64,000 nt of DNA from an uncultured Desulfobacter sp. (GCA_963665095.1 OY762069.1:2688001-2752000), one strand, 5' to 3'; shown: positions 40,327 to 61,122, counted from the stretch's first letter. Notes: generated from the letters alone by a model not told the origin. Program-made: numbers and translations.

Positions 40327-40347
40327 CAGATAGAGCAGGAAAGAATT

Positions 40348-42219: not shown

Positions 42220-44217
42220 ATGAAACTAGTACACTACTTAAAATTATCCTTCCCTGCTGTAAGTATTATACTAAGTTTTTGTATCATCCTGCTGGTCGCA
42301 CAAAACCTTTCGGCCATGGAAAAAGAAATCTATAAAATAGGGATCCCGACAGACAAAGCGCCCTACTCCTTTACCGCCTGGTCCAAAAGCGGAATAAAGC
42401 TTCGGGGGGCCTATATTGATGTCATGACCCAGATTGCCCATCACATGGGTGTAGAATTCCAGTATGTGAAATCCGGCAATCCAACAATGATGATACAGCT
42501 TTTCAATGAAAAGAAGATCGATATCATAGGCATGACCCTGGAACAGGTCTTTCCTTATCATATTAAAAATTTAACTACGATCCCGGTAGGCCTTAACATG
42601 ACCTCCTGGATCTTTGTCAACCATTGTTGTAAAACCATTGTCTGCCAGAAAGACCTGCCCGGCAAACGGGTTTCCATCATCGGCTTTGAGGCGCTTGGGT
42701 TATGGCCCTATGACATGTTAGACGTGTCTGACATTTTCCCGGTCCAGACACCTCTGGAAGGGCTGACCCTGTTAAACGAGGGGCGGATACACGCCTTTAT
42801 TGCACCGTCAGAAGAGATTGCCAGCTACATTATTCACAAACATGGTTTTGAAAACGTGCGCAGGGTCGGCCTTGCCCTGAGAAAAATACCACTGGCCCTT
42901 TCCCTGGACAGAGAAGATACCCGGTTAACAGGCCGGCTGCTTGAAGCCATAGGGAAAACCATGTCATCAGGTATTATCCGCCAGATCGAAGAAAAATGGT
43001 ATGGGGTTGAGTTTAAACGCTCCTTTTTTGAAAAATACAGCCGTCTTGTTTTTTCTGTCATTGGGTTTACGGTGCTGGTTCTGGGCCTTGTTGTTATCTG
43101 GAACAATGAGTTGAAAAGGCAGGTAAAAAAAATCACGGCCCAGTATCGAACATCGGAAAACAGGTCCCGAAACCTGATCGAATCATCACCGGATATGATA
43201 TTTGTTGTGGACCGGGCAGCCAGAATCTATAATATGAACAGGGAGGCACAGGCTTTGATGCCAAAAGGGCTTGCCAAAGGGTTTCTTCCCCGCCTGACGG
43301 ATATGGTTCCCCCTGCAGACAAAAAATCAATTTCACTCTTCCTGGAAACCGTATTCTCCACAAACCGGGCAACCAAAGAGCTCCGGTTCAAAAGGCCCGA
43401 TTCAGGGTACAGGGAGATTGATGTTGCCGCCACCCTGCTTCCCTCGGAGCCCGGTGAAGAACCAAGAGCCTGTTTGTTTGCCAGAGATGTCACCCGGAAA
43501 AACCGGATTGAACGGGACCTGGTTCAAGCCGACCGCATGGCCCTGATCGGGCAGATGGCTGCGGATATTGCCCATGAGATTAACAATCCGATCGGTATCG
43601 TCAGAGCAAACATTGATGTGATCCTCGCCCGGGGCTGGTATACACCGGAAGCAAAGGAGTTTTTAGAGTCCTGCAAACGAAATACCGACCGCGCCGGTAA
43701 ATTTACAAAGGATCTTCTGGCAATGGCCAGGCCAAAGGATCCGGAGATGGCGGAACTGAACCTGTGGGAACTGGTCAACGCCACCATTGAAATCATGGGT
43801 GCCCAGTTAAAAAATGTCACCATCCAGAAGCAGACCAGGGGAGGTCCTGCACAAATTATCGGTGACCGCAACCTGTTACAGCAGGTTCTGGTCAACCTTC
43901 TTTTAAATGCCGCCGCCGCCACCAAAAAAGTAGCCGTCCCTGAAATAAAAATTACCAGCTGCGTCCCCAGCGGGCTTGACATGGTTTGTCTCAGAATTGA
44001 AGATAATGGAATCGGCATCCCCAAACAGCATTTAACAGAAATTTTTGAGCCTTTTTTCACACAGGGCAAAAAAGAGGGCTTCGGCCTTGGCCTTTTTATT
44101 TCCAAAAGAATTATAGAAAACCACAACGGCATGATTTACGCTGAGTCCGAGGTGGGTGTCGGCACCCAGATGGTCATCGAACTACCTTTGATTATAACAG
44201 ATCCTTTCACTTCCTGA
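42220..44217 (+). CDS. Sensor histidine kinase (periplasmic SBP_bac_3 domain, PAS, HisKA, HATPase; NtrB-like)
   Basis: APYSF periplasmic binding domain, TM, PAS (IESSPDMI), IAHEINNP, NLLLNA, DNGIGI and GFGLGL motifs. Confidence 0.93.
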   Translation: MKLVHYLKLSFPAVSIILSFCIILLVAQNLSAMEKEIYKIGIPTDKAPYSFTAWSKSGIKLRGAYIDVMTQIAHHMGVEFQYVKSGNPTMMIQLFNEKKIDIIGMTLEQVFPYHIKNLTTIPVGLNMTSWIFVNHCCKTIVCQKDLPGKRVSIIGFEALGLWPYDMLDVSDIFPVQTPLEGLTLLNEGRIHAFIAPSEEIASYIIHKHGFENVRRVGLALRKIPLALSLDREDTRLTGRLLEAIGKTMSSGIIRQIEEKWYGVEFKRSFFEKYSRLVFSVIGFTVLVLGLVVIWNNELKRQVKKITAQYRTSENRSRNLIESSPDMIFVVDRAARIYNMNREAQALMPKGLAKGFLPRLTDMVPPADKKSISLFLETVFSTNRATKELRFKRPDSGYREIDVAATLLPSEPGEEPRACLFARDVTRKNRIERDLVQADRMALIGQMAADIAHEINNPIGIVRANIDVILARGWYTPEAKEFLESCKRNTDRAGKFTKDLLAMARPKDPEMAELNLWELVNATIEIMGAQLKNVTIQKQTRGGPAQIIGDRNLLQQVLVNLLLNAAAATKKVAVPEIKITSCVPSGLDMVCLRIEDNGIGIPKQHLTEIFEPFFTQGKKEGFGLGLFISKRIIENHNGMIYAESEVGVGTQMVIELPLIITDPFTS

Positions 44218-44300
44218 ATCAAATCCAAACCTGAACCTTTTTCCGGAAAACGGTTCCTGCCCCCCCCCTGAACCACACTTCTTCCCCATGGTGTTTCCCC

Positions 44301-44350
44301 TGTGCTTTAAGGAGCACACCATTGCCTGAATGTGTGCATCTGACCGCACA
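44301..44350 (+). promoter_or_regulatory. Tandem palindromic enhancer sites TGTGC-N8-GCACA (44301-44318, 44333-44350)
   Basis: Two perfect copies 32 bp apart, about 75-125 bp upstream of a sigma54-like promoter. Confidence 0.7.
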
Positions 44351-44424
44351 GACCGTATTGTATGTCATCCTTTACAGCCCGTTTTCCCCATTACTTTAAG
44401 GGAGTTAGATTTTAAAATATCACG

Positions 44425-44440
44425 TGGTACGATTTTTGTA
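44425..44440 (+). promoter_or_regulatory. Putative sigma54 promoter (-24/-12), variant
   Basis: TGGTAC-GATTT-TTGTA has the correct GG-N10 spacing but GT instead of GC. Confidence 0.55.
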
Positions 44441-44533
44441 ATCGTATGTTCCATGCGTTTATGAGCGTGAACACAGAAGTGAACGTTGACACAGAACCGG
44501 CGAACAAAACGAGTTTAATGAGGTAAAAAATTA

Positions 44534-47467
44534 ATGAATCTGAAGTGTAAAACCCAAACAATGAAAAACGCTCAATTGTTGTTCATATTTTTGCTGGTCT
44601 TTTTTCTGGGCTGGGCCGAACCAGGTATAGCGTCGGCGCCAAAAGATCCCCACGGACTGCAGCCGGCAGACGACATGGTGTTCCTTCCCAAACTTGCCGG
44701 CCTGCGGAACAAGACCTACAAGAACCAGTCCGGCAAGAAAAAGGCCCTGTCCGAAGCCCTTGTCCTTCGCCAGAGCAAAATAGAAAACAACAAGGCACAG
44801 GTATCGCCCGGAGGGCTGTTCTACATCTCGGAAACCAGCAATGATGCCCAGCCTTTTCACAGGGATCCGTTCCTTATTTTAGGAGAGCACTGTTACCTGG
44901 TGGATTTGTCCACAGATACCCATATAGTAAGGAATTTCAAGGTAAACATCGGGGACAGGGAACCGGTGAAGGATACTGGATACCGGATCTGGTACGACTA
45001 TGCCACGGATCACTATGAAAAACCATACGGCGAGTTTGCCCTGATTGCGCCTTCCGGGGGCTGGCCCCTGGAATTTCCGATATCCTCTTCTTTTCCCGGC
45101 AGGCAGGAGACCCGGGACTTGAATTCCGGTGAGGGATATGTGGACCAGCTGATCAAATTTTACCTGGATAAGGATTATTACTACGGGGCCATGCATTTTA
45201 AAGCCAGAGACATTGGTTTTGAAACAGCTGAATTTGAACGCTTTGAATTTCCCGCCATCACAAAGGCTACCTTTTCAATGCACCGCCCCATTTTCCTGGA
45301 CCTCCGCCAGGAGGATTATCGGCTCTACTTTGATAAAAGAATTTACGCATTCCGGCGGGCCGACGGATTTCTTGTCCGGGTGACCGATTTTTTCGGGAAA
45401 AAGGTATTTGCAGAAAAACTGGTCAAGCCGGTGACGGGACAAGGGTATAAGACCCTGATGTCGGAAAAGGATAAATACCATCTGACCATACCAAAGCTGG
45501 ATATCCGCATTGAAATTATGATCCAGCCGGAATTTATGAAAAATTCCGATTTCATGCCCTGGTCAACGGGAAAATCTCACGGATTCGGCAAGGGTGTACT
45601 GAACTTTGTGGTGTACCGGAAGCTGATCAAGGTTGAAAACGGACGCGCCTGGCCCCTGGATGACCGCTACAATGTGCGGCTCGAACCCAGCATGCTCACG
45701 GGAATGCTCAAACGACTGGTCATTGAAAACGCCCAGCCCGTTGTTTTTGACAATGAACATCCTACTTTTGACGGACCGGTAAAGTGGTCGGATATATACA
45801 ACAGGCCGGCATTCCAGGTCACGGCAGATAATTTCGAAGACAACCTGGTTAAAAATCTCTATGTCAGAGACTACTACATGATGCGTACGGACAACATGGT
45901 ATTCTGGGAAAAAGAGGGCCGGGAAAACATCGATTTTTTTGTGGGCTCATCACCCGTGCTGGAACCTATCCTGGAGGATACCTTTCTGACCCGCCTGGCA
46001 GACCCATCCTTTGGCGTGGTGGTGGAAAAATCCCATTTCACCTCTTATCCCAAAGCAATCAGTGATGCCTCCTTTTACGAGCCTGACCATACGGCCCCCT
46101 TTGTACCCCGCCTCAAAGGGCTGAAAAGGAAATTTGTCAGAAACAGAAAAAAGGAACGGCTGATCTCATCGGAGAGCGTGTTTATCCGGGGCAGTTACGT
46201 TGACTGGCGGAGAAATCAGATTATCATCCCGCCGGCAGGACTGTGCTACTCCACCAGAAATGCCAGAAATATCAGAACCCTGGCCGGGGAGTCCTTTTTC
46301 ATGCTGGGAAAACAGGCCTATCTGACCTCTTTCAAGTCATCCACTTTTGTTAAAAAAAATTTTGACGTGGATTTCTGGAAAAACCAGCCCATGGATGGCG
46401 GTAACCTCATGTACTGGCAGGATGAACTGTTAGGCGTCCGGAACAAGGCCCTGCGCATGACCGGTTTTCACTACCTGGATGACAGGCCGGTATCTGAGCT
46501 GAGTCTGATGAAATATTCAGGTAACCGGTGGGGGGCACATTTTCTCATGGCCCAGGGCCTGGACCCTGAAGGCGGAAACCGGTATCACCTGCCTGAAATC
46601 TTCGCTGAGGGATCCACCTGGATTATTCCGGAATATACGGGATCGAACTATATCAAAATCAAAGAGTTCGGCACGCCTTCCATCGAAGCCATCAGCTTTA
46701 CCTATACCAAACCCCGGGAAGCGGTTCTTGGCGCAGGAGATGAGGCCAGACTGGGTAAATACAGACTGGTGTGTACATTCATTGACATAGAGGCCGGCAC
46801 CATCGGCCTGGAATTAAAGGATGAGACCGGCAGTATCGTGGCATCCAAAATTCTGGGCCCCCTGGATGAGGGAGCTCTGCAACTGCTGCCCCAGCACCAG
46901 ACAGTGGCCAAGTCCATGCAGTTCATGTTTGAAGACCTGCAGGCGGAGCTGGACATTCTTACCCCCTTTAAAAAAGGAAAGGCTCAACTCTATCTTTTCA
47001 CGGATATTGAATTCCTGGAAAGAGATACCCCTTTCAATTTCGACAACCGCTTTATGGTCCGGCCGGATGTGTGCGGGCATTGCTATCAGCTCAACGAGGT
47101 TCTTTTGGATAATCCGGAACCGATTATCCTGGACATGAAAAACCCGGTTTACGATGGCCCCAGACGTGAAGACGGCACCCCGTTGTTCCGTATTGTCATT
47201 GACGATTTCGACGGTGAGATGCTCCATGCCTGGCACATGGAGACCGATGACGGGGACGGTATTGAAAAAACCGAAAACCTGGCGTTCAGGCCAAGGAACA
47301 ACCTGGATGTACTGGTGGGGGTCACCGGCACCACCGAAGGCTTTTTAAGGTTATCCATGCTGCCCCGCTTAGGATTTATCGAATCCTGGCGGACCAGTGC
47401 CAAAGCATCTGCAACCAAACTGTCCGGATCGGTTAACACCGGCGGTAGTGCCCATATCAGACGATAG
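44534..47467 (+). CDS. Exported hypothetical protein made of two homologous halves, CGHC motif in the second
   Basis: Signal peptide; alignable repeats (e.g. FLPKLAGL/FVPRLKGL, DDRYNVRLE/DNRFMVRPD, PTFDGP/PVYDGP). Alternative start at 44561. Confidence 0.85.
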   Translation: MNLKCKTQTMKNAQLLFIFLLVFFLGWAEPGIASAPKDPHGLQPADDMVFLPKLAGLRNKTYKNQSGKKKALSEALVLRQSKIENNKAQVSPGGLFYISETSNDAQPFHRDPFLILGEHCYLVDLSTDTHIVRNFKVNIGDREPVKDTGYRIWYDYATDHYEKPYGEFALIAPSGGWPLEFPISSSFPGRQETRDLNSGEGYVDQLIKFYLDKDYYYGAMHFKARDIGFETAEFERFEFPAITKATFSMHRPIFLDLRQEDYRLYFDKRIYAFRRADGFLVRVTDFFGKKVFAEKLVKPVTGQGYKTLMSEKDKYHLTIPKLDIRIEIMIQPEFMKNSDFMPWSTGKSHGFGKGVLNFVVYRKLIKVENGRAWPLDDRYNVRLEPSMLTGMLKRLVIENAQPVVFDNEHPTFDGPVKWSDIYNRPAFQVTADNFEDNLVKNLYVRDYYMMRTDNMVFWEKEGRENIDFFVGSSPVLEPILEDTFLTRLADPSFGVVVEKSHFTSYPKAISDASFYEPDHTAPFVPRLKGLKRKFVRNRKKERLISSESVFIRGSYVDWRRNQIIIPPAGLCYSTRNARNIRTLAGESFFMLGKQAYLTSFKSSTFVKKNFDVDFWKNQPMDGGNLMYWQDELLGVRNKALRMTGFHYLDDRPVSELSLMKYSGNRWGAHFLMAQGLDPEGGNRYHLPEIFAEGSTWIIPEYTGSNYIKIKEFGTPSIEAISFTYTKPREAVLGAGDEARLGKYRLVCTFIDIEAGTIGLELKDETGSIVASKILGPLDEGALQLLPQHQTVAKSMQFMFEDLQAELDILTPFKKGKAQLYLFTDIEFLERDTPFNFDNRFMVRPDVCGHCYQLNEVLLDNPEPIILDMKNPVYDGPRREDGTPLFRIVIDDFDGEMLHAWHMETDDGDGIEKTENLAFRPRNNLDVLVGVTGTTEGFLRLSMLPRLGFIESWRTSAKASATKLSGSVNTGGSAHIRR

Positions 47468-47482
47468 AAAGGAAAATTCATT

Positions 47483-48649
47483 ATGCCAACCACTGTCTCA
47501 TCCGCTCCGGGCAGCTACAATCAGAGAAGACGATCCTTTCTGAGTTCTCTGTACACATTTAAAGAAGCACTTCCCGGTCTTCTGGCCATGCTTTTCATAG
47601 CGGTATTTGCCAACAACATGCCCGGGGTTCCCAATGCCTTTACCCTGCAGAACCTGTTCCGATGGATGGATGGCGTTGCCGGTCCTTTTAACCATCAGCC
47701 CCTGTTTCAGATCCTGAATTCAAACTTTGTCTGGAATCCCCTGCTTTTAGGGCTTATTATCGGAAACCTGTTTGGTGTGCCGGATATCTGGAAACGGGGT
47801 TTAAGCTATATCCACCTGCTCATGCCTTTGGGGATCATCATGCTGGCGCCCCATTTCATGGTTTTCCATGCCTTCAAGATCGGGGTTCTGCCCATTCTTA
47901 TCTGCACCCTGGCTCTGTTCGCCACAGCCAGTATTACCCTCTATGTAACCAAATGGATGAACCTGGATGACCGTCACGGATCCATTATCGCAGGCGGCCT
48001 TGCCACAGGGGATCCCCATGCCTGCGCCATCCTCATGCCTTTGATCAAAGCACCGGGGGCCCAGGTGGTCAATGCAGTCTTCGGGGTGATCACATGGGGG
48101 CTGATCGCCATGGTCCTGGTTCCCCTATTCGGGCAGATGATGGGTATTCCTGAGAAATATCTGGGGCTTGCTGCAGTGACGGCGGTGGGGAACGGCCACC
48201 AGGCCCTGTATGCCGGTTATGCAGCCGGGTACGAAGCCGGGCGGTATGCCTGCTGGTTTGATGTGGGGCGTCATGTCATCATGCCTTCGGGATTCATCTA
48301 TGTGTTCACGGTAATGTTTATCAGAAAACTGAAAAACAGAAATAACCCGGAAATCAGAGCCACCCGGGGCATAAAAACCTTCCCGATCTGGCTGGGTGTA
48401 TTTATTTTCTGCTGGATACTGTCTTGTCTCCATCTGTTTAAGGAACCGGCCCATCATGCCATATTCAACATGGTCAGATGGGATTTCTCCCTGGCAGCCG
48501 CGGCCTTAGGCTTAAGCCTGTCCTTTAAGGATATCGCCAGGGCCGGCATTAAAGGGTTTCTGGTAACGGCCATTTCAGGATCCATCCGGATCGTGCTGGT
48601 TCTTGGGACAATTTTAATCTGTTTTAAGGCGGGATGGTTTCCGGCCTGA
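47483..48649 (+). CDS. YeiH/PSE-family (putative sulfate exporter) membrane transporter
   Basis: About 10 TM helices; LLLGLIIGN and AAAALGLSLSFKDIARAGIKG are typical of UPF0324, though divergent. Confidence 0.7.
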   Translation: MPTTVSSAPGSYNQRRRSFLSSLYTFKEALPGLLAMLFIAVFANNMPGVPNAFTLQNLFRWMDGVAGPFNHQPLFQILNSNFVWNPLLLGLIIGNLFGVPDIWKRGLSYIHLLMPLGIIMLAPHFMVFHAFKIGVLPILICTLALFATASITLYVTKWMNLDDRHGSIIAGGLATGDPHACAILMPLIKAPGAQVVNAVFGVITWGLIAMVLVPLFGQMMGIPEKYLGLAAVTAVGNGHQALYAGYAAGYEAGRYACWFDVGRHVIMPSGFIYVFTVMFIRKLKNRNNPEIRATRGIKTFPIWLGVFIFCWILSCLHLFKEPAHHAIFNMVRWDFSLAAAALGLSLSFKDIARAGIKGFLVTAISGSIRIVLVLGTILICFKAGWFPA

Positions 48650-48662
48650 GGGGCGAATCGCT

Positions 48663-48815
48663 ATGGAAAGAAATATGCACACCACAGATGAAGCAGGGTT
48701 TGACTATATGGCCAACACAGGCATGGAAGAACAGGACAGGGATACATGCGGCATGGCCATTGCGCTGATCATTATGACTGTTCTGACCATCTGCCAATAT
48801 CTGGGGCTGTACTAA
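48663..48815 (+). CDS. Small single-TM protein (50 aa), not in the ORF track
   Basis: MERNMHTTDEAGFDYMANTGMEEQDRDTCGMAIALIIMTVLTICQYLGLY; GAGGGG RBS-like sequence upstream. Confidence 0.55.
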   Translation: MERNMHTTDEAGFDYMANTGMEEQDRDTCGMAIALIIMTVLTICQYLGLY

Positions 48816-48843
48816 CCATTAATAGATTTTGGAGCGTTTGTTT

Positions 48844-49041
48844 ATGTTTTCCGCAATTATTTTTGTCTGCCTCATGCTCCTGCTTTTTCTGGCCGGCGGG
48901 GCAGCCGTTCACATGGGAGTATTTAAATCCCACAAACAGGGAAAATCCCTGGCATCAAAAACCATTACCGGGATCCTGTCCTATGGGTTTTCCGCTGTGT
49001 TCTGGTTTTTCAGTTATACCCATTTTTATCTGGGCTGGTAG
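48844..49041 (+). CDS. Small two-TM membrane protein
   Basis: GGAG before ATG at 48844; two hydrophobic segments. Confidence 0.65.
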   Translation: MFSAIIFVCLMLLLFLAGGAAVHMGVFKSHKQGKSLASKTITGILSYGFSAVFWFFSYTHFYLGW

Positions 49042-49141
49042 GGGGGCCGTGTTCAGGCCGGGCCGGCCGCGGGCACCTATTGGAACAACAGGTTACTATT
49101 TAACATCTGCCCATGGAAACCGGGCAGCAGAAAGGTGAAAA

Positions 49142-49444
49142 ATGACATTAGAAAAATGGATTGTAGCTCTTCTTGTAAGCGTATTTCTTCTTGTGAACAC
49201 AGGCTTAGGGGTTGCATCGGACGACAAGGCCGGGAAGATAAATTTGAACACGGCCACCAAGGAACAACTCATTGGTCTGGGCATGGATGAGGATACCGCC
49301 AATGCCGTACTGGAGCACAGAAAAGAAAACGGAGAATTTGTGGATATTGAGGAACTGCTCGATATAGAGGGCATTGATAATAATATGATCCGGCAGCTTA
49401 AAAAGAAAATCTATATAGAGGGTGTCAAGGGATGCAATTGTTAA
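49142..49444 (+). CDS. Exported ComEA-like helix-hairpin-helix protein, C-terminal GCNC
   Basis: Signal peptide; KINLNTATKEQL...HRKENGEF..IEELLDIEGI. Confidence 0.88.
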   Translation: MTLEKWIVALLVSVFLLVNTGLGVASDDKAGKINLNTATKEQLIGLGMDEDTANAVLEHRKENGEFVDIEELLDIEGIDNNMIRQLKKKIYIEGVKGCNC

Positions 49445-49469
49445 GCACTTTATCCGGAGAAAAACAGCT

Positions 49470-50618
49470 ATGAATACAAATAGACGATACAGATTTTATA
49501 TTGCCCTTGCGCTTCTGGCTTTCCCCCTTTGGGTGAATGCCGAAATTTTGGGGAATTACATGGGATACGAGGCCTGCATCAAATGCCATGAAGAAATTGT
49601 CCAGGGCTGGAAAACCACGCCCCATGCCAATGCGTTTGAAACGCTTAAGGAACAGGGCGAGGAGAAACAGTCCATCCCCGGGTGTTTCAAATGTCATGTG
49701 GTGGGCTTTGAAGAAGATGGCGGTTTTGTGGATATGGCACTTACCCCGGAATTAAAAGATGTCCAGTGTGAAAACTGCCATGGGCCGGCCAGAAAGCACG
49801 TTGAAAGTGAAGGGAATCCGGATCTTATCATTGGATCTCCAAACGAAGCTTCCTGCCGGATCTGCCATACCACAGGCCAGGATAAAAACTTTGACTTTAA
49901 GAAAAAAAGTCAGTGGGTCCACGCCGCAAAGGGTGCCGATGGAAAAATGGGAAAGACCCAGGCCAAGGCCGTTGAAATTCTGAATTTCAGTGAAACCCGG
50001 GTGGAATTTGGCAACATGGTTGAAGGGGACATTGTTAAAAAAAAGGTAACCGTGACCAACACGGGAAACAAGACCGTCACACTGACCAACCTGACCACGT
50101 CGTGTGCGTGCACGTCGGCTACACTGGGTAAGCGTGAACTTCAACCCAGGGAATCCACGGAGCTGGAAATTACCTACTATACCTATAAATTTCCCGGCAA
50201 ATTTGCCAAATTTATTACCGTATTTACTGACATCCCGGGCAAGGACCAGTACCGGGTGGACATCAACGGTTTTGTCAAGGCCATTCCCATGGGCGTGCTT
50301 GAGGTCCAGCCAAGAAAAATCGCCCTGGGTGAAAATCTGAAAACCGGCACGCCCCTGCCCTTTACCATATCAATCACCAATACAGGGGATGCAGAGATGA
50401 AAATTACCAAAATTGTATCCAAAAAAAGAAAAACCCTGTTTTTTGATTCTGACCGAACCGGGGAATTAATTATTAAACCGGGTGACACAGCCAATATTGA
50501 CACTGAAGTTATCTACGACAGCAAAGGACGGATGCTTGACTATATCATGATTCACTCCAATGCCCGAAACGTTACCTCACAAGGATATAAGGTAATATTG
50601 ACAGGAACGTTTGAATAA
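49470..50618 (+). CDS. Tetraheme cytochrome c (c554-like) fused to two Ig-like (DUF1573-type) domains
   Basis: CIKCH, CFKCH, CENCH and CRICH; then FGNM...VTNTG...SCACT and ITNTGDAEM...SNA. Confidence 0.88.
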   Translation: MNTNRRYRFYIALALLAFPLWVNAEILGNYMGYEACIKCHEEIVQGWKTTPHANAFETLKEQGEEKQSIPGCFKCHVVGFEEDGGFVDMALTPELKDVQCENCHGPARKHVESEGNPDLIIGSPNEASCRICHTTGQDKNFDFKKKSQWVHAAKGADGKMGKTQAKAVEILNFSETRVEFGNMVEGDIVKKKVTVTNTGNKTVTLTNLTTSCACTSATLGKRELQPRESTELEITYYTYKFPGKFAKFITVFTDIPGKDQYRVDINGFVKAIPMGVLEVQPRKIALGENLKTGTPLPFTISITNTGDAEMKITKIVSKKRKTLFFDSDRTGELIIKPGDTANIDTEVIYDSKGRMLDYIMIHSNARNVTSQGYKVILTGTFE

Positions 50619-50703
50619 AAGTACCACTTAACGCGTCCCCTTTGCTTTATCCGGATCCGGAAAAGCAAAGGGGATAACATGCTGAAAGGAGTTGATAAGA
50701 AAA

Positions 50704-52149: not shown

Positions 52150-52223
52150 TTTCCCCCAGGAATCAATTGTGAGGCAAAGACCCTGGAATAAAAGAAAACG
52201 ATAGTTTAAATCAGGAGGGCAAC

Positions 52224-52565
52224 ATGTTTAAACCCGCACGACTTCTTACATATGGCATTTTCTGTTTTTTGGCAGTTCTTCTGTTTAGCCCGGCCATGGC
52301 AGGAGATGGCATTATCAGCCTGAACAAGGCAGATCTTCAAGAGATCAAAGCACTGTTTGTTGATGAACTCGATCTTCCCGAAGAGCTTGCAAGGTCCCTT
52401 GTGGAATATCGCAAGGCCAACGGTAGCTTCAAATCACCCGAGGACCTGATCAAGGTGCCGGGTATGACCCAGGATTTTATCGAAGAGATCAACCCGCAGC
52501 TCATTGACAATGACGTGGTTTACGATCCGGATGCAGAACCGGCACTGGCGCCTTCGAAATGCTGA
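52224..52565 (+). CDS. Exported helix-hairpin-helix protein, C-terminal LAPSKC
   Basis: Signal peptide; ISLNKA...YRKANGSFKSPEDLIKVPGM. Confidence 0.88.
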   Translation: MFKPARLLTYGIFCFLAVLLFSPAMAGDGIISLNKADLQEIKALFVDELDLPEELARSLVEYRKANGSFKSPEDLIKVPGMTQDFIEEINPQLIDNDVVYDPDAEPALAPSKC

Positions 52566-52613
52566 ACCAGAAGTGCTGAACCAAGGTTGAACTGAAATTT
52601 AAAGGAGAACATA

Positions 52614-52952
52614 ATGAAATCATTAACCGGAAAAATATTTTTTGCACTGCTCTTCATGGCCGTCACCTTTATTTCGTCCGGTGCTCAGGCTGGCGTAGAG
52701 GATGACTTTATCAGTTTTAATACGGCCCCGGCATCGGAATTCCTGAAAATTCAAATTGTACAGGTCCCTGAGGCCGTAGCCAACGCCATTGTCAAGTACC
52801 GGGAAGCAAACGGCCCCTACAAAACCCCTGAAGATCTCAAAAAGGTCCCCGGAATGACGGATGACCTGTTCGATGCCCTTGATCCCATCGAGGAAGAGGG
52901 AGACATCGTGTTTGAAAAAGCCGGCGGCCCCGGCGGGATGAACGCTTATTAA
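52614..52952 (+). CDS. Exported helix-hairpin-helix protein, C-terminal GGPGGMNAY
   Basis: Signal peptide; ISFNTA...YREANGPYKTPEDLKKVPGM. Confidence 0.88.
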   Translation: MKSLTGKIFFALLFMAVTFISSGAQAGVEDDFISFNTAPASEFLKIQIVQVPEAVANAIVKYREANGPYKTPEDLKKVPGMTDDLFDALDPIEEEGDIVFEKAGGPGGMNAY

Positions 52953-53029
52953 TCTAACATACGGATGGGGATGTATGAGGCAATGCCCCTGCGGCAAAAA
53001 CTCATACGCCCCAATCAAGGAGAACATAT

Positions 53030-54394
53030 ATGAAAAAGAAAGTTCTGCTGCCCCTGCTCCTTGTCTTTGCCTGGATGAGCACGGCCAGTGCATATGAAGC
53101 TTTTACCGGCCCCACCGGGGTCCTTCACTGGGACAAAAAAAAGGCCTATGAAGGGTATACCTTGTTTGCCCCCATGGTCAACTGCACGACCACCTACCTT
53201 ATAGATATGGAGGGCAATGTTGTCCATACCTGGGAAAGCAAATTTCCTCCCGGACTCTATGCCGAGCTTCTTCCCAACGGAAATCTGCTCAGGGCAGCCA
53301 CGCTTCCCAGAAAATCCAAAAAGGGATACTGCGGAATCGGCGGTGCCGGCGGACTGATCGAAGAGATCGACTGGGACGGAAATGTGGTGTGGCGGTACAA
53401 ACTATGGGAAAAGAACAAGGAAATTCAGCACCATACTTTTTACCGGCTGCCCAACGGCAACACCATGATCCTTGCCTGGGAAGTAAAGCCCATACAGGAA
53501 GGCATTGATAAAGGAAGGGACCCTGCCACCCTGCCCGATAAACCGGTGACCCAGAAGGGTGTGCCCATGGACGACTGGTGGGTGGATTTTGTCCGGGAAG
53601 TAGATCCGGCCGGCAACACGGTCTGGGAATGGCATGTGTGGGATCATGTCGGCACAGGACCCGACCAGCTGGACATCAACTACAAGCTGCCTGATCCTGT
53701 TGGACTGACCTATCCCAACTGGGACTGGAGCCATTTCAACACCATTGATTATATTCCGGAAACCGATCAGGTGGTATTAAACTCCAGAAACTTTGCCGAG
53801 TTCTACTTCATCAACCACAAAACCGGTAAAATCGAGTACCGGTGGGGTAACCCTTCTGCCTATGGCAAGGGGAAAAGACCTTCCTGGTATGACAACGGAG
53901 ATCAGAAGGTGTTTGGCACCCATTGCTCCACAGTCCTTGAAAACGGAAATATCCTGCTTTTTGATAACGGATCCGAAGGTCCTGAGGAGAGACGGTCGGC
54001 CGTGTTTGAGATCAACCCCAAGACCGATGAGGTGGTATGGAAATTTGAACCCAAGCATACCAGCAGTTTCTTCTCCTACCGCCAGGGCGCGGCCCAGAGG
54101 CTTCCCAACGGGAATACCCTGGTTACCTCCACCCATGGGGGACATTTGTTTGAAATCAACAAACGGGGGGATGTGGTCTGGGATTATGTCAGCCCGGTAT
54201 TCAGCGGGAAAATGAAATGCGTGGCAGAAGATGATGACGCTTTCGACCGGAAATACCACCAGAACGGCATGACCAACATGATTCACCGGGCATACCGTTA
54301 CGGTGCGGATTATCCGGGGCTGAAAGGGAAAGACCTGAGTCAGAAAACGCCCATGGTCAAAGACTGCCCCGCATTTTTTAAGACATATAAATAA
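53030..54394 (+). CDS. Aryl-sulfate sulfotransferase (ASST family), Sec signal
   Basis: GYTLFAP, QHHT, WSHFNT, NSRN, GTHC, FDNG and AQRLPNGNTLV motifs. Confidence 0.88.
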   Translation: MKKKVLLPLLLVFAWMSTASAYEAFTGPTGVLHWDKKKAYEGYTLFAPMVNCTTTYLIDMEGNVVHTWESKFPPGLYAELLPNGNLLRAATLPRKSKKGYCGIGGAGGLIEEIDWDGNVVWRYKLWEKNKEIQHHTFYRLPNGNTMILAWEVKPIQEGIDKGRDPATLPDKPVTQKGVPMDDWWVDFVREVDPAGNTVWEWHVWDHVGTGPDQLDINYKLPDPVGLTYPNWDWSHFNTIDYIPETDQVVLNSRNFAEFYFINHKTGKIEYRWGNPSAYGKGKRPSWYDNGDQKVFGTHCSTVLENGNILLFDNGSEGPEERRSAVFEINPKTDEVVWKFEPKHTSSFFSYRQGAAQRLPNGNTLVTSTHGGHLFEINKRGDVVWDYVSPVFSGKMKCVAEDDDAFDRKYHQNGMTNMIHRAYRYGADYPGLKGKDLSQKTPMVKDCPAFFKTYK

Positions 54395-54629
54395 CCGTTG
54401 GAAACATGTAAGGAAACGTTTTTTGTTATCTTTAAAGAACGCCGGTTCTCCTGATAAAGGCGGACCGGTGTTCTGCTTTGAACAACGCTTTTGAGGATTT
54501 CATCTTGATAACCGGATGATCATAATCGTAATATGAAAGTGAAGTAAATATGTGCGTTTTGAGCGGCAACTGACCTGGTTATTTTTTGATGATGAATAAC
54601 AGCAGCCTGAAGCAGAGGAGAAAAATCCT

Positions 54630-55985
54630 ATGAAATATAATGTATTATTCATTGATGACGAAAAGGATTTTTTAACAGCTCTCAAGGGGTATTTTACCAT
54701 AAACTATGAAGTGCAGACGGCTGAATCAGGGGCTAAAGGACTGAGCCTTCTGGAGCAGACCCAGTTTGATGCTGTAGTTACGGATATGTCCATGCCCGGA
54801 GGAATGGATGGACTTGACGTGATCAGGGAAATCAGAAAAACAGACCCCCTTCTTCCCATTATCATCATGACAGGCGTTGGCACCATTAAAAATGCCGTTG
54901 AAGCCATCCAGCAGGGCGCCTTTCATTATATTACCAAACCCTTTGGTTCTGATGAGCTTGAAATCACCCTGCGCCGGGCCATTGAGAGCGGCCAGCTTCA
55001 CCGGCGGCTTGCCAGACAGGAAGGCGAATCCAGGAAGGACAACGATTATGTCTTCGGCTCAAGCCGTCAGATACAAGATATCATGCAGACAATTGACAAG
55101 GTGTCCGACTCTGATGCACCCATCCTTCTTTTGGGAGAAACCGGAACCGGAAAGTCCATGATAGCCAAACATATCCACAAGACAAGTACCCGGAAAGACA
55201 AGCCTTTGTTCACCATCGACTGTGCTGCCCTGGCAGAGACCCTTCTGGAAAGTGAACTCTTTGGGCATGTCAAAGGTGCTTTTACAGGCGCCGTCTCAGC
55301 CAAGCGCGGACTGTTGGAAGAGGCGTATGGCGGTACCATCCTGCTGGATGAAATCGGGGAGCTTTCCCCGTCCACCCAGGTCAAACTGCTCCGCGCAGTC
55401 CAGGAACTTGAAATCCGGCCGGTGGGGGGTAACCGGCCGGTGAGTATAGATGTCCGGTTTATATCGGCAACCAGCCGGAATCTGGAGGATGAAATAGAAA
55501 AAAACCTATTCAGAAAGGATCTATATTTCCGTCTGGCTGTTATCTCCTTAACCCTGCCCCCCCTAAGGCAAAGGAAATTTGATATTCCCCAGTTTGTGGC
55601 CCATTTCCTGGAAAAATTTAACCAACGGTACAAAAAAAGGATTACCCGGCTTGAACCCTCCGTCCTCCAGGACCTTCAACAATTGCCCTGGAAGGGAAAC
55701 ATCCGGGAACTGGAAAATACCATGGAGCGGATGGTGCTGCTGGCGGACCGTGACGTGGTCACCCGGGATCTGTTATATTTTTGTGATAAAAATAATTGTT
55801 GCCAGGAAACGGACACGCCCAACGACCACATCTCCTCCTTAAAAGAAGTGGTCCAGGATGCTGAAAGCCTGGCCATAAAGCAGGCCCTTGAGCTGACACA
55901 GGGCAACCGGACCCTGGCAGCCAAGCTTTTAGGTATCGGAAGGCGTACCCTCTACGTCAAGATGGAAACCTACGGAATTAACTGA
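54630..55985 (+). CDS. Sigma54-dependent response regulator (NtrC/AtoC family)
   Basis: Receiver domain, GETGTGKS, ESELFGHVKGAFTGA, WKGNIRELEN and Fis HTH. Confidence 0.95.
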   Translation: MKYNVLFIDDEKDFLTALKGYFTINYEVQTAESGAKGLSLLEQTQFDAVVTDMSMPGGMDGLDVIREIRKTDPLLPIIIMTGVGTIKNAVEAIQQGAFHYITKPFGSDELEITLRRAIESGQLHRRLARQEGESRKDNDYVFGSSRQIQDIMQTIDKVSDSDAPILLLGETGTGKSMIAKHIHKTSTRKDKPLFTIDCAALAETLLESELFGHVKGAFTGAVSAKRGLLEEAYGGTILLDEIGELSPSTQVKLLRAVQELEIRPVGGNRPVSIDVRFISATSRNLEDEIEKNLFRKDLYFRLAVISLTLPPLRQRKFDIPQFVAHFLEKFNQRYKKRITRLEPSVLQDLQQLPWKGNIRELENTMERMVLLADRDVVTRDLLYFCDKNNCCQETDTPNDHISSLKEVVQDAESLAIKQALELTQGNRTLAAKLLGIGRRTLYVKMETYGIN

Positions 55986-56006
55986 TCTGCAACCATATTT
56001 TTAAAC

Positions 56007-56183
56007 TGTGCAAATCCGCGCGCAACTTTCCTGACAGCCGCACTCCCCTTGCCTTGCTTTTTTGCAGAATACTAGTAGATTACGATGGATGGTTCCATCC
56101 GGTTTCTTATAATTCCCTGCCGATCACCCACATCTGTGTATAATCCTGCACTCCCCAAAAGCGAATGTGCCGGAATCGATACT
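56007..56183 (+). promoter_or_regulatory. Degenerate TGTGC-N8-GCACA sites (56007-56024, 56135-56152, 56166-56183)
   Basis: 1, 2 and 3 mismatches respectively to the 44301 motif; the last two are 31 bp apart. Confidence 0.5.
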
Positions 56184-56300
56184 ACTTCTTTCATCAGGCG
56201 GGGAAAGCCCTGCTTTCAATGGGGTTCATTCCAAAAAATACCGTTAGAATATTCTATCATCTCAACATATTAGAATAACGTTAGGCTGATCCAGGAGCAG

Positions 56301-56316
56301 TGGCATACCCCTTGCT
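56301..56316 (+). promoter_or_regulatory. Sigma54 promoter (-24/-12)
   Basis: TGGCAT-ACCCC-TTGCT, near consensus. Confidence 0.8.
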
Positions 56317-56448
56317 AAGTTATGGGTAATCAAGGACTAACGGAACATTTTAAACGCGATGTTGCAGGATGTTCCATTGAGGCGAGAGCCAAAGCCTCCC
56401 GAGGGGGGGTGTGTATTTCAGTTTACTTTTACTTTACACGGAGGAGAG

Positions 56449-57738
56449 ATGAAAAAGTCTTTTATTGCGACCTTAGCTTTGATTTGCTGCATGGTGTGGT
56501 CGGTCCCTGCATTTGCCGTGGATTTTGAGTATGGCGGTTATTGGAGGACACGTGCTTATACCATGAACGGATTCACCGGAGACGGTGATGATGAATCCCT
56601 TGATATGTCCAAGGTGGATGCCAGGGGACGGTTATGGACCAAACACATTATCAACGAGGAAACATCCTGGACAAACCGGATCGAGTTCAACGTGATCTGG
56701 GGGGATGAAGACAATGGCGGGGGCATTGCCACCGACGGTACAGACTATATCCGGTTCAAACACTCTTATATGGATTATGACACCACCGTATTTAATACAG
56801 ACATGCACTTAAGAATGGGTCTTCAGGGATTTACAGTGGCCAACGGCATGCTGTTTGATGATGATTTCGCCGGCCTGATCCTTTCCCACGAAGGCAGTAC
56901 CGCCACCCACAGATTCATCTGGATGAAAGTATTTGAAGGCAGCACGCTTTCCGGAGAATATGAAGAGGACCTGGAGGACCTGGATGTTGATTTCCTCGGG
57001 TTATCCTCCACTTTTAACTTCATGAACGATGCCCTGGCCCTGAACGCCTACGTCTTTTACCTGACCTCCGACGACGGCCGGGAGTGGTCTGCCACCACCG
57101 GAAACCAGGAGATCAGCGTTTATTATCTTGGCGCAGATATCAAGTACACCCTTGACAGCGGAAACATCTGGGGGGTTCTCCTGTATGAAGGCGGTTCCGC
57201 AGATGTTGTCAATTCAGATGTCGAATATGATATGAAGGCCTATATTGCAGCCCTTGGCGGAGAAATGAATCTGGGCAAAGTGGGCATCCATGGTCAGGTA
57301 TTCTATGCCAGCGGCGATGACGACCTCAGTGACACGGATGTAACAGGCTTTTACGTGCCAAGGGGCCAAAGCTACTACTGGTCTGAAATCATGGGCATGG
57401 GTGTATTTGATTACACAGCCAGCAGCGGTTCCCCGGCAGATACCATCTCCAATGTTGTTGCCGGCAACTTGGGTATCAGCTATGAGGTATCCCAGGACTT
57501 AAGCCTTACCGGCGATATCTGGCACGCCCGGCATGCAGATACCAACGTACTGGTCACAGAAAAGACGCTGGGTACGGAAATTGACCTTCGGGCCGATTAT
57601 AAAATCAATGAAGACCTCAACCTGGTCGTGGTGGGGGCATACCTGTTTGCCGATGATGCAACCACCATGGGTGCCGATGACGCGTCTGATGTCTATGAAA
57701 TCGGCATGCAGTTATCCTTTAGTTTCAGTACCCTCTAA
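56449..57738 (+). CDS. Outer-membrane beta-barrel porin (deltaproteobacterial type)
   Basis: Signal peptide AFA-VDFEYGGYWRTR, alternating beta-strand pattern, LGTEIDLRADYKI and acidic loops. Confidence 0.8.
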   Translation: MKKSFIATLALICCMVWSVPAFAVDFEYGGYWRTRAYTMNGFTGDGDDESLDMSKVDARGRLWTKHIINEETSWTNRIEFNVIWGDEDNGGGIATDGTDYIRFKHSYMDYDTTVFNTDMHLRMGLQGFTVANGMLFDDDFAGLILSHEGSTATHRFIWMKVFEGSTLSGEYEEDLEDLDVDFLGLSSTFNFMNDALALNAYVFYLTSDDGREWSATTGNQEISVYYLGADIKYTLDSGNIWGVLLYEGGSADVVNSDVEYDMKAYIAALGGEMNLGKVGIHGQVFYASGDDDLSDTDVTGFYVPRGQSYYWSEIMGMGVFDYTASSGSPADTISNVVAGNLGISYEVSQDLSLTGDIWHARHADTNVLVTEKTLGTEIDLRADYKINEDLNLVVVGAYLFADDATTMGADDASDVYEIGMQLSFSFSTL

Positions 57739-57759
57739 TCACATGAAAGGAATCATCAC

Positions 57760-59685
57760 ATGAAAAAAATCCTTTTGGTGCTGACTGTGACTTTGATGGC
57801 CTCGGCAGCCTATGCTGCATCCCAGTTCTACAGCGCCACCGAATTGAACTACCACAACCCGGATACAGCCTATCAAGGGTATACCCTGTTTCATTCCATG
57901 AACGGGGAACAGACCACCTTCCTCATTGACATGGAAGGCCAGGTGGTCCATGCCTGGCCCATGGATGCTGACAAGTGGTCCATATCCAACAGTGTTCATT
58001 TTTATGAAAACGGGCTTCTTTTGAGGACCCAGACGCCCCAGTACGTGGGCAAATTCAAACTGGGATCCAGTGGTGGCAATCCCATGCTCGGAACCGTTTA
58101 TAAATTTTTAGACTGGGATAACAATGAAGTTTATTCCGTACGCCATCCTTTGCACAAGGATCCCACCGAAGCAGAGCTCCAACAGATATTCGGCCTTACT
58201 GATGATCAGATGAATGATCAGACAGCCATTGATGCGGCAGTGGCAGCCATGACCACAGCCCAGCAAGAAGAGATCAAGGCGCTTATCGACTACCGGGAAC
58301 ACCATGACGCAAAGATGATCTGGAATAAAAACTTAGGCAAATACACCATCATGTTTATTGCCAATAAAAAATTAACCGAGGAAGAGGTGCTCAACGCTGG
58401 TCAGGACCCTGATCTTGTGGATGTATCCACGATCTCTTCCTATCCCCACCTGGTTGATACGGACGTGATCGCTGAAGTCGATATCCAGACCGGAGAGCTG
58501 ATCTGGCAATGGTGGAGCGGGGATCATCTGATCCAGAACTACAGCGAGACTGCGGACAACTATGCCCAGGATATTGCAGACTGGTACTATGATGGGGATC
58601 TGCAGGAAGCCCATTACCACCGTCTGGATATCAATCATAAAAACAATCAGGGAATTTTCGGCCTGCGGGAAGACTTTTTTCACACCAACTCCTTTGACTA
58701 CAATGCCGATCGGGACGAGGTGGTATTGAATTCCAGGACATTCTCCGAATTTTTCGTCATTGACCATTCCAAGACCACAGAAGAGCTCAAGGGTAAAGCA
58801 GGCGACTTTTTATGGCGGTTCGGATCGCCCAGCAACTATTCATCCAAAGACCAGCTCGGAGAGGACCACGCGGATGTGGTTGCCTATCCCGGGGCCCGGG
58901 ACGCGTCTCTGGACCAGATTTACGGCGCCCACGACATTCACTGGATTCCAGAGGGGGAACCCGGTGCCGGCCATTTTATGATCTATGACAACGGTATTTT
59001 CCGTCCTGTATACCAGAACTCTGCCGTGCTGGAGATCAACCCCTACGATGACAACGGCAATTACATCCGGGAGCTGGATGCCGGCTACAAAACCAGCATG
59101 ATGCTCTATCCGGGAGCTATTGGCGCTGGCACATTTATGTACGGGTCCTATTTCAGTACAACCGTTAATTACATGAAGCCCTCCAACCTCATCACCTGGG
59201 CGTTTACCAGCAACTCCTGGAATTTTTTCGGCCCCCATATTTCAGGGTGCCAGCGTCTGGCCAATGGAAACACCCTGATCTGTGACGGCCCCAACGGCCA
59301 TTTCTTTGAAGTGACCACAGAGGGCCGGGTGGTCTGGGAGTACACAAGTCCTCTGTATGGAAGCACCATGTCCATGCCCGCCCTGAAAATCTTCGGAGAC
59401 CAGACCAGCATGTATATCGGCGCCACCACAAACAGCGGATTGACCTATGACGGGCAGGAGATCATCGGTGGCAGCGGCTTCTTTAACAGTGTTTTCCGCG
59501 CCTACCGGTATGGAACGGATTTTGCCGGTTTTTCCGGTAAGAATCTCGTGCCCATGGGTACGGTTGTGGAATATATGCAAAATGATGGAACACCATCATT
59601 CACCGGATTCGGATTCGGCGGAGGGATAGGCGGTTCCGGCGGTTCCGGCGGCGGTGGTGCCGGCGGTTCCGGCGGTGGATACTAA
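57760..59685 (+). CDS. Aryl-sulfate sulfotransferase (ASST family) with insertions and Gly-rich tail ending in Tyr
   Basis: GYTLF, EHHD, FFHTNS, NSRT, GAHD, YDNG and CQRLANGNTLI motifs; C-terminus GFGFGGGIGGSGGSGGGGAGGSGGGY. Confidence 0.87.
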   Translation: MKKILLVLTVTLMASAAYAASQFYSATELNYHNPDTAYQGYTLFHSMNGEQTTFLIDMEGQVVHAWPMDADKWSISNSVHFYENGLLLRTQTPQYVGKFKLGSSGGNPMLGTVYKFLDWDNNEVYSVRHPLHKDPTEAELQQIFGLTDDQMNDQTAIDAAVAAMTTAQQEEIKALIDYREHHDAKMIWNKNLGKYTIMFIANKKLTEEEVLNAGQDPDLVDVSTISSYPHLVDTDVIAEVDIQTGELIWQWWSGDHLIQNYSETADNYAQDIADWYYDGDLQEAHYHRLDINHKNNQGIFGLREDFFHTNSFDYNADRDEVVLNSRTFSEFFVIDHSKTTEELKGKAGDFLWRFGSPSNYSSKDQLGEDHADVVAYPGARDASLDQIYGAHDIHWIPEGEPGAGHFMIYDNGIFRPVYQNSAVLEINPYDDNGNYIRELDAGYKTSMMLYPGAIGAGTFMYGSYFSTTVNYMKPSNLITWAFTSNSWNFFGPHISGCQRLANGNTLICDGPNGHFFEVTTEGRVVWEYTSPLYGSTMSMPALKIFGDQTSMYIGATTNSGLTYDGQEIIGGSGFFNSVFRAYRYGTDFAGFSGKNLVPMGTVVEYMQNDGTPSFTGFGFGGGIGGSGGSGGGGAGGSGGGY

Positions 59686-59717
59686 TACCGACCTGAAGAC
59701 CCCATCAACCTGATAAC

Positions 59718-59755
59718 CGGGCGCTGCACAATGATGTGCAGCGCCCGTTATTTTT
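59718..59755 (+). terminator. Intrinsic terminator
   Basis: cgggcgctgcaca/tgtgcagcgcccg stem followed by ttattttt. Confidence 0.85.
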
Positions 59756-60497: not shown

Positions 60498-60650
60498 TCC
60501 GGTGTCAAAGCGGTTGTGGGGATAAAAAACAACTTTGGAAAACGCAGAATATAAAGTCGGGTTGTATGCACCTAAAAAAGGAATAGCATCTATCTTTTAG
60601 GCTGATTCTGGACAGACCTCACCGGAAACCCCGCAAAACACTCAAAAAAT

Positions 60651-61025: not shown

Positions 61026-61122
61026 TTATGCGGAGTTCAAAATTATGCTGAGTTCATTTGAAATATCCAGTATTGAAGCAAGTCAACAAATTATGAACTC
61101 AGCATAATAGCACAGCGATTAA

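Follow-up and report, generated by a model that had tools for sequence, protein, structure and literature searches.

What task could unite three arylsulfate sulfotransferases (ASSTs), small exported proteins ending in Cys or Tyr, a cytochrome and a YeiH-family transporter in one stretch of a bacterial chromosome? The question is raised by a locus at 42220-59685 in 64,000 nucleotides of DNA from an uncultured Desulfobacter sp. (GCA_963665095.1 OY762069.1:2688001-2752000), the whole of which we refer to as the window. The genome concerned, a single contig of 6.9 Mb, encodes dsrA, aprA, sat and a selenocysteine tRNA. An earlier reading of the DNA (hereafter the original prediction) had seen in the locus a periplasmic sulfuryl relay for organic sulfate esters. 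We found that the cluster is a real, conserved system, and its gene content and hosts lead us to favour, with some reserve, a periplasmic relay that would turn organic sulfate esters into sulfite for dissimilatory sulfite reductase (Dsr) without Sat or AprAB. Co-occurrence of the parts, tyrosine tails, the pairing of selenocysteine (Sec) with Cys in homologues and Dsr-bearing hosts all point the same way, although the porin that had been counted as a part is not conserved.

Every gene of the locus lies on the + strand, in the order sensor kinase, 977-amino-acid (aa) protein, YeiH, two small membrane open reading frames (ORFs), HhH protein ending in CNC, tetrahaem cytochrome-DUF1573 fusion, ASST1, HhH protein ending in PSKC, HhH protein ending in NAY, ASST2, sigma54 activator, porin-like gene, ASST3 and terminator. 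All the genes named in the original prediction were thus present; its list was incomplete, having overlooked the two small ORFs and a CxC domain that forms part of the cytochrome protein.

With the 977-aa protein as the marker for the cluster, we obtained 50 genome loci from the best 80 of 124 stretches and 59 metagenome loci from the best 80 of 130, sets in which distant hosts are under-sampled. One genome locus was set aside as another fragment of a genome already represented, so that 49 remained, and 23 loci were fully flanked (at least 8 kb on both sides). Conservation of the gene neighbourhood, the test that had been proposed for the relay, held: the 977-aa CGHC protein, YeiH, the CxC-ended HhH carrier, an ASST and a C-terminal Tyr were each present in all 23, a PSKC carrier in 17, a cytochrome with DUF1573 in 16 and a porin in none. 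Gene order differs between lineages and the gene set is constant, across hosts labelled Desulfosarcina, Desulfobacula, Desulfarculus, Pseudodesulfovibrio, Desulfopila, Desulfoluna, Syntrophaceae, Mailhella, Acidobacteriota and others. Cultured carriers include Desulfosarcina variabilis Montpellier (L004) and Pseudodesulfovibrio karagichevae (L021). The marker is patchy, occurring in 1 of 60 relatives of the window genome and in 0 of 24 congeners. One locus with an Anaerovoracaceae label (L049) is nearly identical to one with a Desulfatiglandales label (L044), reflecting either recent transfer or a binning error.

The three ASSTs lie at 50704-52149 (ASST1, with a twin-arginine signal), 53030-54394 (ASST2, a tail-less form) and 57760-59685 (ASST3, divergent), and match PF05935 with 75, 84 and 57 bits against a gathering score of 24.2. 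The active site of Escherichia coli AssT consists of His252, His356, Asn358, Arg374 and His436 (PMC10932419; statements attributed here and below to such papers refer to the accessible portions of their texts). Mapped through alignment to AssT (3ELQ), the equivalents are H134/H235/N237/R268/H318 in ASST1, H135/H235/N237/R253/H298 in ASST2 and H182/H308/N310/R326/H391 in ASST3, so that the catalytic His and Arg are retained, as predicted, along with the rest of the five residues. A phmmer search with ASST1 alone found no match in the PDB, and a profile search was needed to reach Cpz4 and AssT. The same two proteins were the top fold matches (TM 0.51-0.54) of a structure model of an ASST2 orthologue from locus L004, which has a beta-propeller fold like that of AssT. 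Sequence, active-site residues and the modelled fold of the orthologue together place the window enzymes in the ASST family.

None of the 30 rows of the ASST1 clade ends in Tyr, compared with 33 of 64 other ASSTs, and in 38 of 39 cases the core ASST gene is followed by that of a PSKC-ended protein. Three Mailhella-genus genomes have 8-13 ASST matches each. In loci L145-L147 of that genus an additional ASST, distant from the cluster, has a far higher PF05935 score (E ~1e-103) and is apparently of the classical type. A fourth, distant ASST of the window genome, without a Tyr tail, lies outside the window at C1:5134338-5135705 (+) amid glycosyltransferase-like genes. The natural acceptors and roles of most ASSTs are described as unknown in a 2026 review (PMC13426309), and their natural substrates and role likewise elsewhere (PMC12809581). 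Tyr-containing peptides accept SO3 from ASSTs (PMC13426309), and p-cresyl sulfate serves them as donor (PMC12809581).

The ends of these enzymes and of their small neighbours are unusual. Tyr is the last residue of 33 of 94 ASSTs, compared with 1.8% of 2930 long ORFs in the home genome, and acidic residues precede the Tyr ends, 4.9 in the last 16 positions against 1.6. Such ends occur on three unrelated scaffolds, namely ASST tails, HhH proteins and an exported family of 160-175 aa, in which 17 of 17 members have one. At least one was present in each of the 23 fully flanked loci, and the nine loci that lack a Tyr-tailed ASST have a Tyr-ended HhH or 160-175-aa protein; the Tyr scaffolds are interchangeable. 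The window has both modes. ASST3 ends in a Gly/Ser linker and Tyr, whereas ASST2 lacks the acidic Tyr tail of its orthologues and is preceded, 77 bp upstream, by the gene of a separate Tyr-ended HhH protein (52614-52952; HhH_3). The tail of the latter (GMNAY) is similar to the acidic Tyr tails that elsewhere are part of the ASST2 orthologues themselves, and we predict that the protein is a tyrosine-O-sulfate carrier acting in trans. A tethered Tyr is in effect a tethered phenol.

The other two of the three small exported HhH proteins end in Cys, as the original prediction had it. The predicted dithiol carrier (49142-49444; HhH_3) ends in GCNC, and the C-x-C end recurs in 54 of 56 rows of its type, the two exceptions being one frameshifted and one contig-cut piece; all three stop codons occur among these genes. 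The predicted S-sulfonate carrier (52224-52565; HhH_3) ends in APSKC. Seven columns are invariant in 32 aligned sequences of its type, four of them being P110, S111, K112 and C113, while the 120 of 120 PSKC endings in a database search are biased by a profile itself built from PSKC proteins. PSKC homologues vary in stop codon, so the TGA of the window gene is a true stop. Selenocysteine at the HhH carrier ends was ruled out, the stops varying among TAA, TAG and TGA. So was a ComEA-like role in DNA uptake: TIGR01259 gave 32-43 bits against 152 and TIGR00426 30-46 against 53, and the tails are invariant.

The predicted large CGHC protein is a 977-aa exported protein (44534-47467) with an internal duplication and one CxxC, the predicted redox site C847-G-H-C850 at nucleotides (nt) 47072-47083. 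It has no Pfam or NCBIfam match. The search returned 239 homologues, of which the full-length ones listed are ~50-97% identical across distant taxa. By a strict pattern, CGHC occurs in 111 of 120 homologues among the matches listed, and C847, H849 and C850 are invariant in 39 aligned 977-aa homologues. The structure model is beta-rich and places the CxxC between beta strands. Its best fold match, a weak one, was a Methanosarcina DUF1608 S-layer domain (Z 9.2, root-mean-square deviation 18.7), with no PF07752 match in the sequence; the ESM Atlas gave no usable match. No thioredoxin fold was among the matches listed for the whole model, the CGHC domain not having been searched alone.

Half-size stand-alone paralogues of this protein, in Mailhella-genus and Acidobacteriota genomes, have a TGA exactly at the C847 position. 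Among database matches 76 of 83 end at that TGA, and full-length Cys versions also exist; to judge from these sequences, the paralogue looks like an unrecognised selenoprotein family. Exported examples of ~485-530 aa with a U-x-x-C motif lie at L113:8930-10399 (-), L117:7099-8562 (-) and L190:8506-10092 (-). The paralogues are mostly not beside ASSTs, the two tested had no NCBIfam match, and the ESM Atlas offered only weak S-layer leads, all under 0.9.

A second Sec/Cys pair concerns homologues of the c554-like tetrahaem cytochrome fusion (49470-50618). The four CxxCH motifs bear out the tetrahaem assignment, and the fused DUF1573/OS_HP2-like domain, a separate gene in most relatives, has a motif of its own, C212-x-C214. 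PF13435, PF07610 and NF041425 all score below cut-off on the fusion (for NF041425, or OS_HP2, 53 bits for the window protein and 53-70 for homologues against 100). Of 22 distinct homologues, 12 have an in-frame TGA at the position of the first Cys, C212, and 10 have Cys there; read-through of the TGA gives intact OS_HP2-like proteins. Homologues therefore show the pattern of selenoprotein genes, an in-frame TGA aligned to Cys with an open frame beyond it, and the window's own copies have Cys. In a check for selenocysteine insertion sequences, hairpins lay 15-18 nt after the TGA in 3 of 4 DUF1573 cases, but no more than 1 of 6 Sec sequences outdid its shuffled versions (z -2.2). Since selenoproteins are mostly redox proteins (PMC1976440) and both motifs have Sec/Cys pairs in homologues, the DUF1573 CxC and the CGHC are both likely to be catalytic redox motifs.

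In some loci a molybdenum (Mo) enzyme exported by the twin-arginine (Tat) pathway, with iron-sulfur (FeS) and cytochrome b or NrfD subunits, substitutes for the cytochrome module. In L047, G515, G517 and G522 the gene of the CxC carrier is located within or directly behind the Mo-enzyme operon. That the same dithiol carrier occurs beside two unrelated electron modules argues for real electron flow. Cytochrome electrons, as originally proposed, would suit the 16 of 23 loci with a cytochrome and DUF1573, but elsewhere there are Mo/FeS/NrfD substitutes or no module in the flank. The Tat molybdoenzymes with FeS and cytochrome b or NrfD at L047:11541-15589, L185/L186 and L189:6440-10152 are unclassified, with all NCBIfam scores below cut-off; against PhsA NF012032 (cut-off 694) the Mo enzymes of variant loci scored 194, 225 and 322 bits.

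The YeiH-family protein (47483-48649), an inner-membrane transporter and predicted sulfite mover, exceeds the cut-off of PF03601 (94 bits against 24.5), in agreement with its earlier assignment, and falls short of that of TIGR00698 (42 bits against 232.6). It is present in 46 of 46 genome loci with at least 1.5 kb downstream of the big gene. Behind it are a 50-aa ORF with one membrane helix and a conserved acidic N-terminal motif (48663-48815), which follows YeiH in all but one of the 57 other distinct loci scanned, and a 65-aa ORF with two membrane helices (48844-49041), with a homologue in 34 of 49 genome loci; neither has a Pfam match. In L044 (14306-14746) and eight other loci a conserved 146-aa protein without a family match follows a divergent YeiH subtype, on the distant branch of the cluster. 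The proposal that substrate enters through the porin as part of the system was not upheld, and the porin is ruled out as a core part, being present in 0 of 49 related genome loci. Some loci include a gene for an outer-membrane protein of the Phenol_MetA_deg family.

The hosts of the cluster link it to Dsr. Among the 49 carrier genomes we found dsrA in 43, aprA over cut-off in 25 and sat in 27. In the Mailhella genus (that of G092) the full gene is present in 19 of 34 genomes, 15 of which have dsrA, and neither sat nor aprA was found in any of the 19 carriers, including the nearly one-contig G124. Among the 137 genomes of one Acidobacteriota class, the full gene is present in 9; dsrA is present in 9 of 9 carriers, compared with 25 of 137 genomes overall, and the full gene is absent from all 112 genomes of the class without dsrA. 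Neither sat nor aprA was found in 5 of these 9 carriers, the aprA model matching in other genomes. In two of these, G515 and G522, dsrA-B-D-N-L is followed on the same strand, after 265 and 530 bp respectively, by the cluster (dsrD, dsrN and dsrL being named from position and homologue class). The cluster runs from an ASST through a Tyr carrier, PSKC carrier, phosphatase-superfamily gene, ASST (a fragment in G522), Mo enzyme, FeS protein, NrfD and CxC carrier to the big protein, with YeiH next in G515, where the contig continues. PF01663 genes in Acidobacteriota clusters lie at L186:3730-5859 (-) and L187:16471-18525 (+), with a twin-arginine-like signal in L187. The idea of a bypass of Sat is consistent with retention of the cluster in lineages without detected sat or aprA and beside dsrABDNL; the window genome has both sat and aprA.

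In the relay that we propose, variable ASSTs would load SO3 from aryl sulfates on their catalytic His, a step that is established for the family. From these substrate-facing enzymes, of which ASST2 is predicted to be one, the group would pass to a C-terminal Tyr on a flexible tail, either fused to the ASST or on a small carrier, and ASST1, the predicted Tyr-to-Cys sulfuryl transferase, would shift it from the Tyr-O-sulfate to the PSKC carrier, whose terminal Cys would then bear it as an S-sulfonate. The CGHC of the 977-aa protein would then attack the S-sulfonate and free sulfite, and the disulfide would be re-reduced via the CxC carrier by the UxC/CxC protein and tetrahaem cytochrome, or by the Mo/FeS/NrfD complex; how the thiol tasks are divided in this step is a guess. 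YeiH and the two small membrane proteins would bring the sulfite to DsrAB. The sulfate/sulfite couple is at -516 mV and ester hydrolysis yields about -37 to -55 kJ/mol.

Several points weigh against such a relay. By these values the aryl sulfate/sulfite couple lies at ~-230 to -280 mV, and the ester/sulfite couple, at ~-230 to -320 mV, is reachable with H2- or formate-level electrons, while the reverse is workable too. Sulfonation of a thiol by an ASST is not reported in the accessible portions of the ASST literature examined. In the model of a Tyr-tailed ASST folded alone the tail is disordered and no docking is visible, a picture that fits a swinging arm. Seven of the 23 fully flanked loci, all of the Mailhella genus, have neither a cytochrome nor a close Mo module within 10 kb. 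In 6 of the 49 carriers dsrA was not seen: one with sat and aprA, four Mailhella-genus metagenome-assembled genomes and one Bacillota-labelled genome, the marker protein of which is a close neighbour of a Desulfatiglandales one. Within the Mailhella genus, non-carriers (G111, G123) are also without sat and aprA, so that this absence does not co-vary with the locus, and the genus encodes sulfonate C-S lyase-family enzymes, so the locus is not required there for sulfite. The G515 and G522 clusters have an inserted gene for an alkaline-phosphatase-superfamily hydrolase. Carriers within each clade are kin, and mostly incomplete metagenome-assembled genomes.

The tested role of YeiH also counts against it. 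Salmonella depends on YeiH to withstand sulfite (PMC12880088), which ties the transporter to sulfite but suggests export rather than the sulfite import of the original prediction. In a system running in reverse, YeiH would export sulfite, a periplasmic disulfide would trap it as Cys-S-SO3, electrons would go to the cytochrome or quinone, and the ASSTs would sulfonate phenols, amounting to detoxification or sulfite disposal free of 3'-phosphoadenosine 5'-phosphosulfate (PAPS). Disulfide sulfitolysis is spontaneous and ASST reactions are reversible, and gene content is indifferent to direction. We nevertheless regard this direction as unlikely, as it would use up the electron acceptor in sulfite-dependent lineages without sat or aprA, the cluster sits behind dsrABDNL in two genomes, and the window YeiH is, by its TIGR00698 score, only distant kin of the tested ones.

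The relay might instead yield sulfite from thiosulfate, polythionate, an S-sulfonate or sulfamate rather than from an O-sulfate ester. Cys-ended carriers are reminiscent of SoxY, the Mo enzymes of some loci are related to thiosulfate reductase, all below cut-off, and the Dsr link fits equally. A phenol-like Tyr tail in 23 of 23 loci, the expansion and divergence of ASST paralogues, as many organic substrates would predict, and the Phenol_MetA_deg-family genes of some loci speak against such substrates, and make this option decidedly improbable.

Rather than freeing sulfite, the Cys proteins could form or repair disulfides in the ASSTs, which would exchange SO3 between small phenols. The motif CGHC is of the disulfide-isomerase type, and the AssT-DsbL-DsbI system of E. 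coli CFT073 (3ELQ) has the fold, the five active-site residues and the setting of exported enzymes by thiol-redox genes in common with the cluster. In E. coli, assT belongs to an operon that serves disulfide formation (PMC10932419). However, in an alignment of 32 ASSTs none of the invariant or nearly invariant columns is a Cys, no DsbA-like or DsbB-like Pfam or NCBIfam match was found among the 14 locus proteins scanned, and the whole-model fold search described above listed no thioredoxin fold for the 977-aa protein. Unlike AssT-DsbL-DsbI, the cluster has multiple ASSTs, Tyr tails, Cys- and Tyr-ended carriers, YeiH, haem or Mo modules and Dsr-bearing hosts; the Tyr tails, the constant YeiH and the Dsr link would be left unexplained, and we consider this account very unlikely.

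Slightly less probable still is net hydrolysis, by which the relay would yield free sulfate for normal uptake and activation, or for assimilation. A sulfatase route to free sulfate is assumed in print for sulfate esters (PMC6129605), YeiH is annotated as a putative sulfate transporter, a phosphatase/sulfatase-superfamily gene lies inside two clusters, and the window genome has sat and aprA. Against this, a search for sat, which did not extend to CysDN-type assimilation, gave no match in 24 carriers belonging to two lineages, and hydrolysis has no need for redox modules or Sec. Lastly, modification of the envelope, with ASSTs tyrosine-sulfating surface proteins and the 977-aa protein as an S-layer-like scaffold, accords with the S-layer fold match and the acidic residues before Tyr tails but is highly improbable, given the 50-97% identity of that protein across distant taxa, its Sec/Cys redox site, the presence of the tails on enzymes and small carriers, and a cytochrome, YeiH and Dsr link that it leaves unexplained.

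The relay from sulfate esters to sulfite, which we prefer, has partial likenesses among known systems. The best structural and profile match was Streptomyces Cpz4 of the caprazamycin pathway (9KF4/9KF6). Cpz4 is PAPS-fed and takes part in a two-step relay through a small phenolic shuttle. It differs from the proposed relay in being biosynthetic, in using a small-molecule shuttle and not protein tails, and in having no redox step. It is among the few ASST-type enzymes with a known role (PMC13426309). The PSKC carrier, with its invariant C-terminal Cys and predicted S-sulfonate, resembles SoxYZ, DsrC and TusA. Carriers of the SoxY/DsrC/TusA type are small proteins with an invariant Cys on a flexible C-terminus. 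Unlike in Sox, the carriers here have an HhH fold, the chemistry is likely reductive, and Tyr carriers and ASSTs are added; no SoxY, SoxZ, SoxB or SoxAX family was among the Pfam and NCBIfam matches of the locus. In CysH, the adenosine 5'-phosphosulfate (APS)/PAPS reductase, a Cys-S-SO3 intermediate is split by a dithiol to give sulfite. The proposed release step would be similar, but periplasmic, with an organic ester as donor in place of an ATP-made nucleotide, and carried out by unrelated proteins. A possible physiological precedent is the steroid desulfation that the literature cites for Peptococcus niger.

The proposed relay would have the same result as organosulfonate respiration by IslAB and HpsG in Bilophila and Taurinivorans, where sulfite from organic sulfur reaches DsrAB with no part played by Sat or Apr (PMC10507020, PMC10413351). 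Those enzymes split sulfonate C-S bonds in the cytoplasm, whereas the cluster would split an ester O-S bond in the periplasm. The cytochrome fusion and its relatives have the DUF1573 domain with a Sec/Cys U/C-x-C motif in common with the OS_HP2 selenoprotein family, although they fall below its cut-off; OS_HP2 was entered as a hypothetical protein (PMC1976440). A Sutterella study speculates on a link between ASST and anaerobic respiration from fumarate-reductase-like neighbours, without the other parts of the cluster (PMC10932419), and the word sulfotransferase does not occur in PMC10507020 or PMC8528874.

The locus is co-oriented, as described originally, but is probably not one operon, because sigma54-type sites precede both the 977-aa gene and the porin gene and gaps of 235-463 bp surround the regulators. 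The sensor histidine kinase (42220-44217; periplasmic solute-binding and PAS domains; SBP_bac_3, PAS, HisKA, HATPase_c) and the sigma54-dependent response regulator (54630-55985), both foreseen in the original prediction and identified by Pfam and NCBIfam family matches, would likely turn the system on. Homologues of the kinase were present in 16 and of the activator in 20 of the 23 fully flanked loci. A sigma54 -24/-12-like site with a non-canonical -12 element, found by pattern match, lies at 44425-44439 (+) before the main operon. Similar sites occur upstream of the big gene in 14 of 39 regions (0.37 expected from shuffles; 0 in coding controls) by a pattern that was loosened after the window's own site had been seen, and in 4 of 38 by a strict one. 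A scan for sigma70 promoters gave matches at chance level only. An exact -24/-12 consensus at 56301-56315 (+), one of two exact matches in the window, precedes the porin-like gene, an outer-membrane beta-barrel-like ORF (56449-57738) with only a weak Alginate_exp match below cut-off. ASST3 has a long tree branch and no match at E<=1e-60 among 300 other genomes of its class. The view of one locus thus holds for orientation and not for membership, the porin and ASST3 forming an accessory unit that has an exact sigma54 site to itself. The locus closes with an intrinsic-terminator-like 13-bp hairpin and T tail (59718-59747, +).

Directly behind the locus, at 60590-63975 (-), are three tandem tyrosine recombinase genes of lower GC (43%) and a transposase-like fragment, which together with the absence of the locus from 24 congeners fits recent mobility. 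Upstream, 30466-41463 contains a LysR gene, a HAD hydrolase and a class-V aminotransferase, which we take to be PhnX/PhnW-like, and on the opposite strand an oligopeptide-type ABC transporter and a phosphodiesterase-family gene; it is likely an aminoethylphosphonate use cluster. The region at 277-24579 is ordinary and unconnected to the finding, with an RND efflux trio, aldehyde:ferredoxin oxidoreductase, nucleoside transporter, TonB/FecCD uptake set with DUF364 and a flavin disulfide reductase with a rhodanese domain.

No description of the cluster was found in the open literature, outside which most subscription papers lie; this agrees with the original prediction, whose author knew of no system of such composition. 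We hold it about evenly balanced whether its genes encode a new mode of anaerobic respiration, a sulfate-ester respiration in which a protein-tethered Tyr would serve as universal sulfuryl bus, a Cys carrier would take over the group, and an oxidoreductase of a new Sec/Cys family would free sulfite for DsrAB, activation costing no ATP. The cluster names candidate acceptors for ASSTs, in their own Tyr and Cys tails, and a purpose for these enzymes, whose natural role is sought. It also places two Sec/Cys redox families that lack annotation in a context, and it reclassifies proteins that currently bear the name ComEA. If the relay is true, sulfate esters would join sulfonates as direct sources of sulfite, the ATP cost of sulfate activation would be bypassed, and dsrAB-bearing genomes without sat or apr would gain a substrate. 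Sediment bacteria without Sat and Apr would then live on organic sulfate, and gut Mailhella would deconjugate host aryl and steroid sulfates with output of H2S.

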